Origin: Bacteroidia bacterium
GTDB taxonomy: Bacteria; Bacteroidota; Bacteroidia; DATLTG01
Direction of reading: 5' to 3'
Length of the DNA: 64,000 nt
Assembly (NCBI GenBank): GCA_039924845.1
Contig: JBDTAC010000054.1
Coordinates: forward strand, 41,308 to 105,307
Each line of letters starts with the position of its first letter. Position 1 is the first letter of the stretch. Positions 4,850-29,426 of the stretch are shown here, piece by piece. Under the pieces are notes generated by a model, which had not been told where the DNA came from, searched no databases, and was given only the letters and a program-made list of their open reading frames with translations. The position numbers and the translations under genes were made by a program.

Positions 4850-7255
4850 TCATTTTACAATGATCAATTTACCATTTCCAGCCATTCCAAAATCGTTCAT
4901 CAATCGATAGAAATAAATGCCACTTTGCAATGTTCCTTTACTGATGATAGTTTGCGTATTCTTGATTGTGATTGCTTGCACTTGCTGACCAAGTATGTCG
5001 TAAAAATACAACACAGGATGATTTTTTATAGAACCTACAACAATATTTACGTCATTGCCTGAAGGATTTGGATACAATGAAATACCAGATGAGATTCCGT
5101 TAAGCACAGCTATTCCAGTAGAAACATTTACTGTATCCGTTTCAACTATCGAACATCCATTCGCATCAATAATAGTGCAAGTATAAATTCCACCAGCTAA
5201 TCCGGTAGCAGTTTCTGTAGTTTCTCCACTTGGCGACCATGAATAGGTATAAGGAGAAGTTCCGCCAGAAGGGTTTGTAGAAGCCGTTCCGTCGTTTATT
5301 CCTGAACCGCTTGAATTAGTGCTTGATGTAGTAGCTGTTAATGCTAATGGTTGCGTAATTACAACACTTTCCGTGGAAGTACATCCTTTTGAATCGGTGA
5401 TTGTACACGTGTATGTATTGGCAGCAAGTCCACTTGCTGAAGCTGTATTACCGCCACCAGATGACCAAGAATACGTATATCCAGCAGTACCTCCAGAAAC
5501 GGCAACCGAGGCAACACCATTGTTATCGCCATTACAAGAAACATTGGTTTGAGTTGTAGTAGCTGTTATTGCAGAAGGTTGAGTAATAATGACACTTTTT
5601 GTTGCTGTACATCCTTTTGAATCGGTGATTGTACACGTGTATGTATTGGCAGCAAGTCCACTTGCTGTTGCAGAAGTTCCGCCACTTGGCGACCAAGAAT
5701 ATGTATAACCTGGTGTTCCACCTGTTGCAAAAATATTCGCACTACCATTGCTGCTTCCGTTACAAGAAACATTGGTTTGAGTTGTTGTAGTTGTTATTGC
5801 AGATGGTTGGCTAATAATGACACTTTTTGTTGCTGTACATCCTTTTGAATCCGTGATTGTACACGTGTATGTATTGGCAGCAAGTCCACTTGCTGTTGCA
5901 GAAGTTCCACCACTTGGTGACCAAGAATAGGTAAAACTTGGTGTTCCACCTGTTGCAGATATATTCGCACTACCATTGTTGCTTCCGTTACAAGAAACAT
6001 TGGTTTGAGTTGTTGTAGTTGAGATGGCTAATGGTTGCGTAATTGTAACTGATGCAGTTTGTGTACTTGAAGCAGCATCTTTTACTGTTACAGTATAGGT
6101 TCCAGCAGCAAGTCCTGTTGCAGTGGCAGCTGTTCCGCCACTTGGAGACCATGAATAGGTATAAGCTGGAGTTCCACCGGATGGTGTAACTGTTGCAGAT
6201 CCATTGTTTCCTCCATTACAAGATATATTCGTTTGTGTTGTGGTAGCAGACAATGTTGTTGCTGAATTACTTGTAGCCAACCAAATAGTAGTATTGACAA
6301 TAATAGTTTCCTCTTCGGTACTTGGCGCGCTTGTGGGATCTCCCGTATAGCCGTTGTAAACACCAGTACTGGCAACACCATATCGATCACCTGTTCCATC
6401 GTCAGCTGGAGAACTATCGCCTTCAAAGGCAAATTTTCCAGAACCATATCTTCCATGACCGGCCATAACACCTGTATTTCCAACTGCACCCATAAATACA
6501 TCTCCCGTTATGGACGAATTTTCAGCAGGATAAAGTGTAAACGTAGTTCCATTATGCCACTGCATGCCTGGACAATTACCTTCTGGACCATGAATAATAG
6601 AATCTGTTAAAGAAGGATTTACATTAGCCGATGTTGGTGAAATATTCACCGAATCAAGTTTAAAACCGAACGCTGTATTGCTTACCGGATTATGGGTAAT
6701 AAAGTCTTCCCAAACTCCACGTGCATCCCATCCATTATTGGTACGAGAAGCATTTATATGATCTGAAATTATAAATAATCCGCCTCCATTATGAATAAAA
6801 TTCATGAGTGCCAATTTTGTATGTGCCGAAAATGGAAATTGCGGCTCATCCACAATAAAAACTTTGTAATTACTTAAATCTTGAGGATTACTGAAATTGC
6901 CATAAGTAATAGAATCAAATGTTGGCAATGTTTCTACAGCATACCCTTTTTTTACCATGTCAATTCCCCAATTAGACAAAGCGCCTGTCCAATATGTTTC
7001 TGGCGTTGAAGCTGTAATGCCTGATTGAGCTGGAGTTGGAATTCGTTGAGCATTATCTTGTTGCACGGTAGAAGTTACTTGTACGGGCAATCCACCAGTA
7101 CCGGTGTATTGCACGTTATGTGCATCCGCATCTATCACCCAATCAGCATTTCCTGCAGTTTGACCTTCCGTGGCATCAAATAAAATTTTTACTTGTGCAA
7201 AAGTGCTGTGCGCCATCAATAGAAAGCAACTGGCTGTTAGTAGTATTTTTTTCAT
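4850..7255 (-). CDS. Secreted cell-surface protein with five tandem SprB repeats and a T9SS (Por) C-terminal sorting domain
   Basis: Signal peptide, then five ~76-aa repeats of the form CNGxxNGSA..GGTPxYTYSWSPSGGT..GLAAxTYTCTITDSKGC (SprB-repeat pattern). The C-terminus (SLYPNPSGNDVNIVV...GIYFYRL...GKLIIVK) is typical of a T9SS sorting domain. Confidence 0.8.
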   Translation of the reverse strand: MKKILLTASCFLLMAHSTFAQVKILFDATEGQTAGNADWVIDADAHNVQYTGTGGLPVQVTSTVQQDNAQRIPTPAQSGITASTPETYWTGALSNWGIDMVKKGYAVETLPTFDSITYGNFSNPQDLSNYKVFIVDEPQFPFSAHTKLALMNFIHNGGGLFIISDHINASRTNNGWDARGVWEDFITHNPVSNTAFGFKLDSVNISPTSANVNPSLTDSIIHGPEGNCPGMQWHNGTTFTLYPAENSSITGDVFMGAVGNTGVMAGHGRYGSGKFAFEGDSSPADDGTGDRYGVASTGVYNGYTGDPTSAPSTEEETIIVNTTIWLATSNSATTLSATTTQTNISCNGGNNGSATVTPSGGTPAYTYSWSPSGGTAATATGLAAGTYTVTVKDAASSTQTASVTITQPLAISTTTTQTNVSCNGSNNGSANISATGGTPSFTYSWSPSGGTSATASGLAANTYTCTITDSKGCTATKSVIISQPSAITTTTTQTNVSCNGSSNGSANIFATGGTPGYTYSWSPSGGTSATASGLAANTYTCTITDSKGCTATKSVIITQPSAITATTTQTNVSCNGDNNGVASVAVSGGTAGYTYSWSSGGGNTASASGLAANTYTCTITDSKGCTSTESVVITQPLALTATTSSTNSSGSGINDGTASTNPSGGTSPYTYSWSPSGETTETATGLAGGIYTCTIIDANGCSIVETDTVNVSTGIAVLNGISSGISLYPNPSGNDVNIVVGSIKNHPVLYFYDILGQQVQAITIKNTQTIISKGTLQSGIYFYRLMNDFGMAGNGKLIIVK
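5317..6000. repeat. Intragenic 228-bp tandem DNA repeat (three near-identical copies) encoding SprB repeats 2-4
   Basis: The antisense shadow ORFs 5359..5544, 5566..5772 and 5794..6000 all begin MFLV and share QQVDLLPIHTRVQSPIQKDV, offset by exactly 228 nt. The sense-strand repeats R2-R4 are nearly identical at the protein level. Confidence 0.8.
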
Positions 7256-24575: not shown

Positions 24576-25575
24576 TCAGTGAAGGATTATAATTTTATCT
24601 GCTTTTACTAAATTGCCTTCGCCATCTGTTATCCTGTAATAATACAATCCCGAAGTTAAATTGTTAGTGGAAAGAGTAGTAATATTACCTGATAATTCCT
24701 CACATTCCACTGCTTGCCCGGTGGTATTATATAAACAAATACTTCCTGATTTCAGTTGTTGCATATCTACAGCTACATTCAATAAATTAGTTGCTGGGTT
24801 TGGATATACTTTAACACTCACCTTAACAGGCTTTATTTCATTTACTCCTGTAAATAAACTATCCGCATAAATGCTATCTGTACTCACAATCACATCATCT
24901 ATGTAGTAATAGGCGTTTGTCCAATTATTTGATGATGAAGCTGAAGAATTAACAAAAACGGTATCTACATGTGCATCATCCACAAAATTGCCAATCACAA
25001 TATATTGTTCTCCTCCTACTGCCACAAAACTGCCGTTAACTTTCATCCAATTTACTTTATCTGTTAGTGGATTATGTGCCGTATCATTGCTTATTTGTGG
25101 GCTATAGTTGATGACAGTATCGCTGGTGAAAACTGTATTAATACTTGAAAAATAAGCGCCTATATTATTGCAAGCATATTTTTCGTTATCCGCCAAACTG
25201 ACATAAAACGTAACATAATATCTTATTCCACCTATCAGTGGACCTATCAAACTATCCTGTATATAATCTCTATTCTCAGGATAAGTTATAAGATAGGTGT
25301 AAATACCGGCATAAGACACTCCTGTATGAGCATATTGGTACCCATATCCATTTGAAGGAACACTCACAATGGCATTACCCGTGCATTGAGTAAAGTAACT
25401 GGGTCCCCCCCCCTCCTCCAGTCCAATATTTGGTGTAGCCAAAAAATTGGTCTGAAGTTGATGGACATTGAAGTTGGTTTTCAAAAGAATAATTAGGCAC
25501 TAAATTTTGCGCTTTTGTTTTCACTGAAAAGGAAAACACACAAAAGTAAAAAGAAAGAAAAATTATTTTTCTCAT
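24576..25575 (-). pseudogene. T9SS C-terminal-domain secreted protein disrupted by a +1 frameshift at a G9 homopolymer (phase-OFF or homopolymer miscall)
   Basis: A signal-peptide-bearing 66-aa ORF (25375..25575) and a 302-aa ORF (24576..25484) carrying a T9SS CTD are in frames offset by 1 nt. They meet at ggaggaggggggggg (9 G on the coding strand, 25405-25413). Removing one G fuses them into ...YTKYWTGGGGGPSYFTQCTGNAIV.... Confidence 0.7.
25405..25413. repeat. G9/C9 homopolymeric tract inside a coding sequence
   Basis: cccccccc-c run on the plus strand, in a genome region that is otherwise strongly AT-rich. Confidence 0.9.
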
Positions 25576-25776
25576 AAGTGGTAAATGAGTACCAAAGATA
25601 TGATTTTTATGATGTTCATTTTAAACCTTAGCTGATTTCTTTCCAAAGAAGAAGGAAAAAGTTGCTCTTGCATTTGCTGTATCAAGTAGTGGATAGCGAT
25701 TTTCTGCCTGTTCAATTCTTTCTTTTCAATTTTAATCATTTTAAAGAGAACTTACCTATTATAGAGCTGTTAGCAT

Positions 25777-26000
25777 GACACTAAGAACTGTGAGTGAGGC
25801 ACTAAGAACTATAAGTAAGGCACTAAGAGCTGTGAGTAGGACACTAAGAACTCTTAGTATGACACTAAGAACTGTGAGTGAGGCACTAAGAACTGTTAGC
25901 ATGACACTAAGAGCTGTGAGGTAGACACTAAGAACTGTGAGTGAGGCAGTATGAATTGTGACTGAGGCAGTCTAAGCTATGAGTAGGACACTCACAACTC
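25777..26000. repeat. Imperfect 21-bp tandem repeat array (~11 units, consensus CACTAAGAACTGTGAGTGAGG)
   Basis: ctaaga recurs at 25780, 25802, 25823, 25844, 25865, 25886, 25907 and 25928 (period 21, first unit 22), with two or three further degenerate units. The array lies 200-430 bp upstream of the frameshifted T9SS gene start and downstream of the M1-like gene stop. Confidence 0.85.
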
Positions 26001-26222
26001 ATTTATTGACAGTTTGAGTATCCGTTTCCGTACCCGAAGTGTCGTCCGTGGTAGTTGAAGAAGTAATTTCTTTCTGAAAAAATATTCGAATCGTTTTCCA
26101 ACGCGCGGATTCTGAATCAAGTTCAGAATCACATTTGCGCTTGCATTTTCTTATTGGTACATCTGCACATTCTCAAATTTCCAAATCAATTCTCCATTCT
26201 AAATTTTCAATTCTGCATTAAG

Positions 26223-29200
26223 TTAAAACGCTCTTTCTACTGCAATGATCCATCTAAATTGAAAAAAGCCTTGATCAGTTGCCGGTGGATGATTCAAAAA
26301 CAAAGGCATATCAAAACGTATTGTCAAAGGATAAACTGTTTGTAAGGGTCCCCAACGTTGTATGGTAAGTGCTGTCCCTACACCTGCATCTGCACGTAAA
26401 TTGCCAAATGCAAGAGTGTTTTGAATTTCATTATCGTTGATAAATCCGGCATCTCCGAACAAATAAGTTGCCAAGTGAAAATAGTTTTTTAGAAAACGGG
26501 GATTGAATTTTACCACATTATTAAACTCTAATTCCGCATTTACAGCCGCACCAGAAGTGCCTTTATAGGTATAAACAATGTTGCCATTTTTATCCATTTC
26601 GGGCGCTAAATAATCCGCATAACCGCGTAAATTAAGTCCGCCACCAGCTTGGAACGGACCCATTGAAGAACCGAAACCTGCCATACTCTGAGAAAAAGCT
26701 CCCGCAGAACGCGTAAATTTATCGTCCATCATTTCTTCTGGATTGGCGCCTGCTAAATACAAAGCGGATTCATCGGGCGTATTGGTGCCCATGCCGTATT
26801 GTGCAATCAAACGCGTAAGCAATTTAAGTTTCCAAATGTTTTTTTTATTGATGTTGGTGATGTTCAAATTGCTGTAATTGTAATCGTTGGTGAGCGCGCT
26901 CGCTTTTAACTCGGCAATGATAGTTCCGCTGTATCCGTGCGTATTGTAGGTGTGTTCGATTCCGAAATTAAGGGTATTATTGAATTTCTGCACTTCCCAT
27001 TCTTGCGGATCTAAGAGGTAATTAAGCGAATATTCGCTTGGACGATACATTGTTTTAAAATAAACATACACGCGATTTTTTAAAGAATTATCTTTCTTCT
27101 CGAAACCTATTTTAGCGGCATTTAAACCATCCAATACTTTCGCAGATAAAAACACATCCGAATGCGGCATAAAGTTATCCGTAGCTGTTTTGTAAGAAAG
27201 TGTAAATGAAATTTTATCAAATTTATTGATACCGGAATCCGAAACTTGTCTTTGAAACATACCTGTATTAAACCAAAAAGTAGCATCAAAAACATGATAG
27301 TAATTGAGGTAATCTCCGTGTAAATGCAAGCCTGCTTTTAATCCATCGTAATTATTGTACCAGGCATCGGGGCGCGCTAAAAAAGTATATTTTGTCCAAT
27401 CGGGCGTGTTGTAAATTTTCGAATCAAAGGCGGATTTAACAGGCTTTTTATAACTGTTATCAAGCATGTAAACATCTGCTAAACGATGTGAAGGATCAAT
27501 TTGTACATCTGCAATTCCATTCGGAATAGTTACCGTTGCTTGATACGTTGGTTCTATTTTGGTTCCCCAGCCAATCCAATGTTTCAACACTATAGCTTTT
27601 GTTTTTTTAGTGAACCAAGTATTCGGAATGTAAAAATGAAAAACGCTGTCGTTGTTATTAATCACATCAAAATCAATCGGCATTTGCATTTCGCCTTTTC
27701 GTTTAAATGTGATAATATATTGATTCGGTGATTTCCCTTTTTTTACGGAAGATACCGCATAATCAATGGTTTTAGTAGTCGTCATCCATTCATCAAAAAA
27801 CCAATTCAAATCTACGTGCGTGTAATTAATAACCGAATTTCTGAAATCCATTAAATACGGATGACAAAATTTCCATTGATTAAAATAATGCTGCATTGCT
27901 TTTAAAAACAAACTGTCACCAAGCACATATTGCAAATTGTACAACATCGTAGCCGTTTTAAAATACACCTGACTGTATCCGCCGCCGTGAGCAACTGCGC
28001 CGTTAAAATCGTCCGAATGCGTATTGAGGGTTACTGGGAATCCGAAAATATTATTAAACATATACCCATTGTAAACATTGGTATTTCGAACCAATGTAGA
28101 ATCTCTATAACGATTTACATACGCTGATTTTTCAGGATTTTGAATGTCGTGTAAACCATCAATGTGTTCTAAGTCCCAGGAAGTCATAAACTGCGTAAAG
28201 CCTTCGTCTAAAGCCGCGCGGTAAGTTTCATTATTGGAAACCATTGCAAAAAACCAGTTATGACTGATTTCATGCGCCAACAAACTTCGATAACTCGGAT
28301 CAAAACCACCATCCAGCGTAAGCATCGGATATTCCATGCCATCGCGTGCATCCGCCACAATCATTTTCGGATACGCATACATTCCAATACTTTCCGAATT
28401 TGTTTGAATTACTTTTGCCGTAAATTCAGCTGCATTTTGCCAGCCCGAAGCGTGTTGTTCCTGTGCTAACGCGATGCATTTAATTCCGTGCCAATCGACT
28501 TCTCCAATACGAAAAGTTGGATCCGCAACAAGCGCAAAATCAAAAACATTTTCTGCATGAAATTTCCACGTTTTATAAGTTCCATCCGGTTTTATGATTT
28601 CAGATGGCGCAGATTCCCACGGTTTATCTTTAAAATTTTTGATATCCAACTTTTCGCGTAAATCGCCTGGATACATTTCTTTTTCGTTTAACAATGTTCC
28701 CGTTGCACCCACAATATAATTATTCGGGAAAGAAATTTCTGCATCAAACGTTCCGAAATCACCGTAAAATTCGTGTCCGAGATGCTGATCTGTTTGCCAA
28801 CCAAATTTACGATCGTACACCGCAATACGCGGATACCAATGCACTAAATCGTATTGTTTGTAACCAAAAGCATTGAAACTTTTCATTCGGCGACGCATTG
28901 TTCCGTGATCGAAATACGTTTTAAATTCAATGTGAAAAGTAACCGATCCGCCTGTTTTTAAAGGCGTTAAAAGCAATGCCTTCATAATCGTATTGTCTGT
29001 TTCTGTTTTTAATTCGATTCCGTTTATCGTAATTTTTGAAACAACCAATCCTAATTTTTCTTTTTCATAACGACCGAAAGAAAGCTTCTGACCATTGTTT
29101 TTAGATAGATTGGCATAATAGGAATTCGGCTGAAAAGCATCTTGATACAAATGAAAAAAAACGAAAGCCAAGGTATCGGGCGAATTATTCCAATACGTTA

Positions 29201-29426
29201 AATCTTCCGAGCCATCCACAATATCTGTGGAATCATTCAACGTCGCTTTTATTTTATAATACACATATTGCTGCCAATAATCAGCAGACGGTTTTTTATT
29301 TTTCCAGTAATAAGGATTTTCCGACGTTCGATACGTGTTGGGCGGAAAAGAAAAATTTGTTTGCGAATGTATTTTCGGTAAAAAAAGAAGTAGTAAAAAA
29401 AGCGATAGTAAAAATATTTTTTTCAT
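26223..29426 (-). CDS. M1-family (gluzincin) metallopeptidase domain fused to a ~450-aa C-terminal domain that ends like an outer-membrane beta-barrel
   Basis: Signal peptide, then HEISHNWFFAMVSNNETYRAALDE, i.e. HExxH-(18 residues)-E, the M1 zinc signature. The long C-terminal extension is rich in alternating aromatic/polar stretches and ends ...FRWIIAVERAF, with a terminal Phe as in OMP barrels. Confidence 0.7.
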   Translation of the reverse strand: MKKIFLLSLFLLLLFLPKIHSQTNFSFPPNTYRTSENPYYWKNKKPSADYWQQYVYYKIKATLNDSTDIVDGSEDLTYWNNSPDTLAFVFFHLYQDAFQPNSYYANLSKNNGQKLSFGRYEKEKLGLVVSKITINGIELKTETDNTIMKALLLTPLKTGGSVTFHIEFKTYFDHGTMRRRMKSFNAFGYKQYDLVHWYPRIAVYDRKFGWQTDQHLGHEFYGDFGTFDAEISFPNNYIVGATGTLLNEKEMYPGDLREKLDIKNFKDKPWESAPSEIIKPDGTYKTWKFHAENVFDFALVADPTFRIGEVDWHGIKCIALAQEQHASGWQNAAEFTAKVIQTNSESIGMYAYPKMIVADARDGMEYPMLTLDGGFDPSYRSLLAHEISHNWFFAMVSNNETYRAALDEGFTQFMTSWDLEHIDGLHDIQNPEKSAYVNRYRDSTLVRNTNVYNGYMFNNIFGFPVTLNTHSDDFNGAVAHGGGYSQVYFKTATMLYNLQYVLGDSLFLKAMQHYFNQWKFCHPYLMDFRNSVINYTHVDLNWFFDEWMTTTKTIDYAVSSVKKGKSPNQYIITFKRKGEMQMPIDFDVINNNDSVFHFYIPNTWFTKKTKAIVLKHWIGWGTKIEPTYQATVTIPNGIADVQIDPSHRLADVYMLDNSYKKPVKSAFDSKIYNTPDWTKYTFLARPDAWYNNYDGLKAGLHLHGDYLNYYHVFDATFWFNTGMFQRQVSDSGINKFDKISFTLSYKTATDNFMPHSDVFLSAKVLDGLNAAKIGFEKKDNSLKNRVYVYFKTMYRPSEYSLNYLLDPQEWEVQKFNNTLNFGIEHTYNTHGYSGTIIAELKASALTNDYNYSNLNITNINKKNIWKLKLLTRLIAQYGMGTNTPDESALYLAGANPEEMMDDKFTRSAGAFSQSMAGFGSSMGPFQAGGGLNLRGYADYLAPEMDKNGNIVYTYKGTSGAAVNAELEFNNVVKFNPRFLKNYFHLATYLFGDAGFINDNEIQNTLAFGNLRADAGVGTALTIQRWGPLQTVYPLTIRFDMPLFLNHPPATDQGFFQFRWIIAVERAF

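Follow-up and report, generated by a model that had tools for sequence, protein, structure and literature searches.

What role, if any, does a tandem array of 21-bp units play in the spacer between a peptidase gene and a secreted-protein gene whose own reading frame is broken by a run of guanines? The locus lies in a 64-kb stretch of Bacteroidia DNA, the whole of which is called here the window. A first-pass annotation of the window had described a tandem 21-bp array upstream of a frameshifted T9SS gene, in an intergenic region of about 650 bp, and had proposed several roles for it. The array itself was borne out by TRF, by lag autocorrelation and by a repeat search, and its setting by measurement: the spacer is 647 bp long, between the stop of an M1 peptidase gene (26223) and the ATG of the T9SS gene (25575), the minus strand carries both neighbours, and the array is situated 184-435 bp upstream of the T9SS ATG. 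The features of the locus are as follows.

24576..25575, minus strand: T9SS cargo gene with a signal peptide, an NLVPNYSFE domain and a Por_Secre_tail; a G9 tract breaks its frame
25593..25625, minus strand: candidate Bacteroidetes-type promoter of the T9SS gene, composed of TTTA (25625-25622), 21 nt, and TAtcTTTG (25600-25593); read from the sequence
25759..26010, no strand: whole tandem array, twelve units; TRF, repeat search, lag autocorrelation, unit table
25759..25779, no strand: edge unit towards the T9SS gene, decayed (10 mismatches), holding the ATG of a spurious 49-aa ORF; unit table
25780..25947, no strand: core of eight well-formed units with 0-5 mismatches to ACTAAGAACTGTGAGTGAGGC; unit table
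25948..26010, no strand: three decaying units on the M1-peptidase side, with 4, 9 and 11 mismatches; unit table
26108..26130, minus strand: hairpin with a perfect stem of 9 bp, GATTCTGAA-cttga-TTCAGAATC, about 95 nt past the M1 stop; read from the sequence
26186..26214, no strand: short 7-bp array of TCAATTC, 4.1 copies; TRF, repeat search
26223..29426, minus strand: upstream M1-family metallopeptidase gene, 1067 aa

The twelve units of the array stand in a strict 21-bp register, so that the 22-bp first unit of the first-pass annotation is not needed. Counted in order from 25759, the units have 10, 0, 3, 4, 5, 0, 5, 4, 0, 4, 9 and 11 mismatches to ACTAAGAACTGTGAGTGAGGC, which amounts to eight good and four decayed units, with a homogeneous centre and degraded ends. 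The identical core units start at 25780, 25864 and 25927. TRF reported the array with a period of 21 at 25779-25969 (9.1 copies, 77% matches, score 212), and an overlapping tract with a period of 63 at 25763-25948 (82% matches) received a higher score of 267. The repeat search returned nine overlapping copies of 111 nt between 25742 and 26020, again in the strict 21-bp register. Self-identity of the array stood at 0.71 for a lag of 21, 0.70 for 42 and 0.72 for 63, and was 0.13-0.34 at the remaining lags up to 70. The consensus 21-mer occurs in three exact copies and one copy with three mismatches, against an expectation of 0 from 100 shuffles. Inside the array, the longest exact repeats measure 36 bp, at a distance of 84 bp, and 25 bp, at distances of 63 and 147 bp. 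Between one core unit and the next, 3-5 of the 21 positions differ; adjacent units have only about 9-11 identical bases in common, and slippage by one unit is therefore unlikely. As had been noted earlier, the array is richer in GC than its surroundings (0.425, compared with 0.30-0.36 in the flanking spacer), and its units abut without unique spacers.

Could the repeat have arisen during assembly? A separate short-read assembly of the same organism speaks to this question. The Logan contig L014 (run SRR24716215) differs from the window by 1 mismatch in 7786 nt and stops at window position 26011, the exact edge of the array, while a second SRR24716215 contig covers the M13 peptidase side, beginning near 24801. 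That this assembly breaks precisely at the array edge argues for a real repeat and against an assembly artefact. The tandem array is thus confirmed, its length of twelve units being that found in the single assembly that spans it. Such an array is useful as a strain marker and is a known cause of assembly breaks; by itself it is of little weight.

The T9SS gene has a candidate promoter of its own. TAtcTTTG begins 25 nt before the T9SS ATG, and from established knowledge of Bacteroidetes promoters we take it to be an instance of their -7 motif, TAnnTTTG. The TAnnTTTG motif begins 24-35 nt before the start codon in at least eight genes of the window, and TAtcTTTG is therefore at the position expected of a promoter. 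From the end of the array it is 159 bp to this candidate -7 box and 134 bp to the -33-like element, both of them downstream. Given that the predicted promoter lies between the array and the ATG, the array falls outside the promoter core and the 5' UTR. On its other side, a scan with a terminator consensus detected no canonical terminator between the M1 gene and the array. The hairpin at 26108..26130, with no T run adjoining it, may mark the end of the M1 transcript.

We consider it about an even chance that the array is a near-neutral intergenic minisatellite, with at most indirect effects through spacing or insulation, and this is the explanation that we prefer. Its position upstream of the promoter leads to this reading. 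The array is a head-to-tail repetition of a unit in the 10-100-bp range, spacer-free, non-coding and situated between genes, and these are the criteria by which minisatellites are recognized. The decayed edges, the 63/84-bp pattern and the three identical but non-adjacent units together suggest amplification followed by reshuffling through unequal recombination or slippage. In such a history, a 21-bp unit would have been amplified, unequal recombination or replication slippage would then have imposed the higher-order pattern of 63-84 bp, and the array would now be decaying from both ends. It would most likely have no sequence-specific function. Nor does the unit show signs of selection: the invariant ACTAAGA run across the window units is not significant (P about 0.10), analogous arrays have no motif in common and no set distance to the promoter, and relative to non-coding DNA they are not significantly enriched upstream of the gene family. 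If the T9SS gene is affected at all, the effect would be indirect, via the length of the spacer or via insulation from upstream transcription. Changes in copy number would be predicted to be rare and to take place between identical units, in steps of 3, 4 or 7 units (63, 84 or 147 bp). The array resembles the MIRU-type VNTR loci, which are also non-coding arrays of 10-100-bp units between genes, and its higher-order structure and decayed edges suggest unequal recombination; unlike in those loci, its units are unusually diverged (77% matches).

Some considerations nevertheless speak against neutrality. Bacteria usually delete useless DNA, and it is mildly surprising that a 250-bp array should persist while diverging to 77% identity. 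The sharp preference for one period, which is described below for related loci, is not an obvious outcome of a purely neutral process and points to a constraint of helical phase or to a specific mutational mechanism. The placement of most related arrays upstream of T9SS-family genes, and their absence from control loci, hint at a tie to that family.

How far does this particular sequence extend beyond the locus? The first-pass annotation had called for a search for further copies of the 21-mer, and none was found, either elsewhere in the 64-kb window or in the public collections searched. A stricter two-unit pattern had no match in metagenome or viral collections, and blastn with the array gave no match among plasmids or phages. 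Apart from the same organism, no relative of the M1 peptidase exceeded 63% identity. The syntenic relative L102/L103 keeps the gene order SPOUT-DUF4783-QRPTase-BrkB-M1, but there M1 is followed at 75 bp by a convergent gene, and the array is absent. In the relative L015-L020, a TPR gene follows M1 after 64 bp. The loci of the closest retrievable T9SS homologues (L022-L025, 47-53% identity) have no array. With the nearest relatives lacking it, the array is therefore lineage-specific.

The architecture of the array was examined in a sample of 80 metagenome loci (347 kb) encoding homologues of the window's T9SS protein. Tandem arrays with a period of 21, 22 or 42 and at least three copies were present at 9 of the 80. 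Sorted by period, the TRF rows from the 80 loci numbered 24 at 21, 7 at 42 and 2 at 63, with periods 16-20 and 22-30 almost empty. Of the nine array complexes, seven precede a family gene by no more than 1 kb, one is just downstream and one is at 2 kb. The most extreme example is L076:1620-2690, where four different arrays with a 21-bp period are strung along about 1 kb, ahead of two T9SS-family paralogues in tandem. At L045 the period is 22, and that array therefore cannot be coding. The unit sequences are unrelated, and there is no motif common to the analogous arrays and the window array. The analogous arrays lie upstream of promoters and never within 147 bp of a start codon, at no fixed distance: from array to promoter, it ranges across the loci from 46 to 435 bp. 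The genes upstream of them are unrelated housekeeping genes. No regulator gene was seen beside the arrays in the nine loci or among the window genes examined, eight of the analogous loci were free of flanking inverted repeats, and among the homologues there was no link between poly-G tracts and arrays. These loci establish 21-bp-period arrays as a recurrent intergenic feature in these Bacteroidia, and the window array belongs to this loose, sporadic class.

Is this class of arrays connected to the T9SS gene family? Enrichment upstream of family genes is apparent when judged by bases alone, and is not significant per intergenic region or per non-coding bp (Fisher P = 0.16; binomial P = 0.22). 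Four control Bacteroidia loci, chosen via the M1 peptidase and covering 83 kb, contained no such array. This is mildly unlikely at the density of the T9SS loci (9 array-bearing loci in 347 kb): about 2.2 arrays would be expected in those 83 kb, with P(0) about 0.11; when the remaining ~63 kb of the window is added, the expectation rises to about 3.8 and P(0) falls to about 0.02 (both by hand calculation). The tie between the arrays and the gene family is thus only suggestive. If the preference for 21 bp in Bacteroidia intergenic arrays holds genome-wide and the T9SS link is real, it would mean either an undescribed cis-regulatory architecture of secreted-protein genes or an undescribed mutational mechanism.

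The recurrence of the period invites a functional reading, in which the array is a phased operator: each 21-bp unit would be one protein site, all sites would fall on one helix face, and the bound protein would activate or silence the T9SS promoter. Modelled by analogy on regulators of the LytTR type, this is the main rival of the minisatellite reading, tentative and in our view somewhat unlikely. It is favoured by the recurrence of periods 21 or 22 with unrelated sequences at many loci, and by the consistent placement of the arrays upstream of promoters and clear of the start codon. AgrA-type sites are imperfect 9-bp direct repeats, [TA][AC][CA]GTTN[AG][TG], placed 12-13 bp apart upstream of the -35 element (PMC5600425). 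On the gene strand, the window unit holds ACAGTTCTT, which matches the AgrA consensus at 8 of 9 positions, and the spacing fits. Like the operators of AgrA and ComE, the array consists of imperfect direct repeats spaced at 21-22 bp upstream of a promoter. By hand calculation, however, roughly 12% of random 21-mers would hold an 8/9 match, and the sequence match is weak. Known LytTR operators, moreover, have two or three repeats, not the 8-12 of these arrays or the twelve units of the window. There is no regulator gene beside any array and no LytTR gene among the neighbours examined, and the variable distance to the promoter and the lack of a shared motif are likewise difficult to reconcile with a common operator. 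A broader form of the same idea would make two-helical-turn arrays with locus-specific sequence a functional class in Bacteroidia, serving as phased landing pads for a family of DNA-binding proteins upstream of NLVPNxSFE-family T9SS cargo genes, with the period reflecting selection for helical phasing. This we regard as unlikely. Plasmid iterons and partition-site arrays are also direct tandem repeats of about 20-22 bp that are phased with the helix; unlike them, the window array is in a chromosomal housekeeping context, with no rep or par gene, DnaA-box cluster or skew switch.

Among described elements, the window array comes closest to BrickBuilt, an imperfect tandem repeat of P. gingivalis with a unit of 23 nt. 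BrickBuilt is invariably intergenic, its nearest genes lying 49-591 nt away (Klein et al. 2015, PMC4596501). Each genome has 19 copies, with leader and tail segments that carry terminal inverted repeats, and parts of the element have promoter activity; 5 of the 19 copies adjoin PorSS-CTD genes and others adjoin peptidases, and copy number varies between strains (PMC4596501). The window array is likewise found in Bacteroidota, is made of imperfect, spacer-free head-to-tail repeats of about two helical turns, is strictly intergenic, has a unit that varies more in one half than in the other, and has T9SS cargo and peptidase neighbours. Could it then be the internal minisatellite of a mobile, MITE-like element such as BrickBuilt, or a remnant of such an element, inserted beside a T9SS cargo gene and perhaps carrying outward promoters? 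The shared setting of peptidase, array and T9SS gene recommends this possibility, which we nonetheless find quite unlikely. The window unit is 21 bp and not 23 nt, inverted repeats flank neither this array nor those of the eight analogous loci, no second copy was seen in the 64 kb or in the collections searched, and the units contain no Bacteroidetes -7 motif. With no terminal inverted repeats, and no further copies in the window or in the collections searched, the remnant of a repeat-rich element that the first-pass annotation had envisaged also finds no support. Since the array differs from BrickBuilt in unit length and in its lack of inverted repeats, and no second copy was seen, we do not class it as a BrickBuilt element and file it under the general kind, as a further bacterial intergenic minisatellite.

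A 21-bp unit might also have a simpler ancestry. Cyanobacterial STRR are arrays of heptanucleotide repeats, and 21 is three times seven. In an origin of this LSSR/STRR type, three diverged heptamers would have become the unit that was amplified. Heptamer assemblages (TAACTGA repeats) have been described in the intergenic regions of Bacteroidetes (MacGregor 2015, PMC4679880), and the window array is likewise intergenic and in Bacteroidetes. The first two heptamers of its unit match at 5 of 7 positions (ACTAAGA and ACTGTGA), and ACTAAGA is itself a common heptamer repeat. When two adjacent unit heads were searched against 185,579 species genomes, 13 loci were found, nearly all of them ACTAAGN heptamer arrays and the rest unrelated repeats. 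The loci (L001-L013), with intergenic heptamer arrays of ACTAAGA/ACTAAGC type, belong to very distant phyla, from Acidobacteriota, Planctomycetota, Verrucomicrobiota, Cyanobacteria (Nodularia), Flavobacterium and Cytophagales (Cytophagaceae); ACTAAGN heptamer arrays are thus widespread, Flavobacterium included. Heptamer and 21-mer arrays moreover co-occur in some loci, for example L054. We consider the heptamer origin very unlikely all the same. Self-identity of the window array is 0.31 at lag 7, as opposed to 0.71 at lag 21, and unlike the heptanucleotide arrays it has a period of 21 with no significant 7-bp substructure. Over 12 analogous units, lag-7 identity was 66 against a shuffled expectation of 67.1 (P = 0.59), which largely refutes this origin, and the array with a period of 22 does not fit it.

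Among the heptamer loci, L006 has two inverted heptamer arrays directly upstream of a gene that resembles, by eye, a four-helix-bundle (23S rRNA IVS-type) gene. The Flavobacterium locus L002 has, after its heptamer array, a CAATTCA heptamer run similar to the short 7-bp array of the window.

The T9SS gene also carries a G9 tract (25405-25413, minus strand) that frameshifts it; one G less gives an intact protein of 332 aa. The tract encodes a GGGGG motif that is conserved across the T9SS protein family. In the NCBI record of the same MAG, only the 263-aa C-terminal piece of the gene is annotated (P0121), and no entry exists for the N-terminal ORF of 66 aa. Runs of G8-G10 near the N-terminus are also seen in four homologous genes from three other loci: one each in L024 and L082, and two in L073. 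Homopolymer length changes, or sequencing errors, may recur in the family at the tract that encodes GGGGG.

The coincidence of array and tract underlies the suggestion, already made in the first-pass annotation, of a VNTR-type phase or rheostat switch, in which the gain or loss of units would alter promoter geometry or 5'-UTR length and so add a second layer of variation beside the poly-G. Precedents exist: in Moraxella uspA2, AGAT repeats act as a switch in the promoter or 5' UTR. Control of promoters by the number of repeats is well established in other bacteria, the 7-bp repeats of H. influenzae hmw being one example (PMC12721329). The window array shares with these switches its position upstream of a gene for a surface or secreted protein. 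The hmw and uspA2 repeats, however, are perfect, have short units and are located between promoter and start codon, while the window array is imperfect and upstream of the candidate promoter, 159 bp from the -7 box, and so neither separates promoter elements nor falls in the UTR. Adjacent units are too diverged for easy slippage by one unit, and no array accompanies the G8-G10 tracts of other family genes (L024, L073, L082). We therefore find such a switch highly improbable. The array and the poly-G frameshift of the adjacent gene are not parts of one switch.

Finally, we give very little credence to the array acting as an RNA-level element, structured or protein-sponging and transcribed by read-through or from its own promoter, or as a heptad-repeat peptide: gene-strand RNA folds slightly better than its shuffles (z = -2.4), two frames are open and no canonical terminator intervenes after the M1 gene, but the opposite strand gives z = +0.9, so that folding as a whole is unremarkable, Rfam has no match and real protein homologues are lacking.

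The rejection of a coding function in the first-pass annotation was upheld. The array has no Pfam match, a search of 5.8 billion proteins returned no homologue of its gene-strand frame, and an exhaustive HMMER search also gave nothing real. The frame on the plus strand is indeed open, as had been reported, and it matches only spurious ORFs that run through other 21-bp repeats. The accompanying remark that this frame lacks a convincing start needs correcting: an ATG is present and opens an ORF of 49 aa (25775..25924), but it belongs to a repeat-unit variant, GCATGAC. Two of the six frames through the array are open, as expected by chance for a 21-bp repeat.

Several other identities were considered and rejected. 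A known RNA found no match in Rfam at either the gathering or the E-value threshold. A replication origin, iteron or partition site was dismissed in view of the spacer, in which there is no DnaA-box match (with up to one mismatch) and no skew switch, and of the neighbours (M1 and M13 peptidases, a T9SS cargo gene), which include no rep or par genes. For intrinsically curved DNA, a wedge model gave an end-to-end/contour ratio of 0.97, straighter than 92% of shuffled-unit arrays; the model parameters had been given a qualitative check on phased A-tracts. A CRISPR was discarded, in agreement with the first-pass annotation, in view of the absence of spacers of similar length between the units, and a MITE on account of its flanks: the 250-bp flanks share no inverted repeat and have only short direct matches.

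The spacer contains further small features. Motifs of 7 bp of the TTCAATTCT type are found not only in the array at 26186-26214 but also at 25702-25733, on the opposite side of the 21-bp array. Likewise, a TTGCkCTTGCATTT motif flanks the array at 26135-26151 and 25662-25678. Both pairs of flank motifs have the same order and orientation and are about 473-481 bp apart; full alignment of the flanks is weak. Between the array and the T9SS gene there is an ORF of 55 aa on the minus strand (25572-25739), whose TGA overlaps the T9SS ATG (ATGA). It has no Pfam match and is probably a chance product of AT-rich spacer DNA.

The homologous loci provided observations of their own. At L045:2571-2933, the 22-bp array is followed, before the T9SS homologue begins, by a 120-aa ORF with a coiled-coil-like C-terminal tail and a weak, sub-threshold Pfam match. 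A conserved leader of about 100 nt, which is absent from the window, occurs just upstream of T9SS-family genes at L042:830-920, L047:615-700 and L070:1145-1235. Its pattern is CGTTTG-[CAGGTG/TTGGTG]-A-rich loop-[CACCTGC/CACCAAC]-AAAGGCATCnTTTCTGC...ACACCAACAAGGGC. Comparison of L042 with L047/L070 reveals two compensatory base-pair changes in the hairpin stem. The leader has no Rfam match at the gathering score and may be an undescribed cis-regulatory RNA. Elsewhere in the window, at 5327-6178, a coding tandem repeat of 228 bp (about 3 copies, 85% matches) lies within an 801-aa SprB-repeat T9SS protein.
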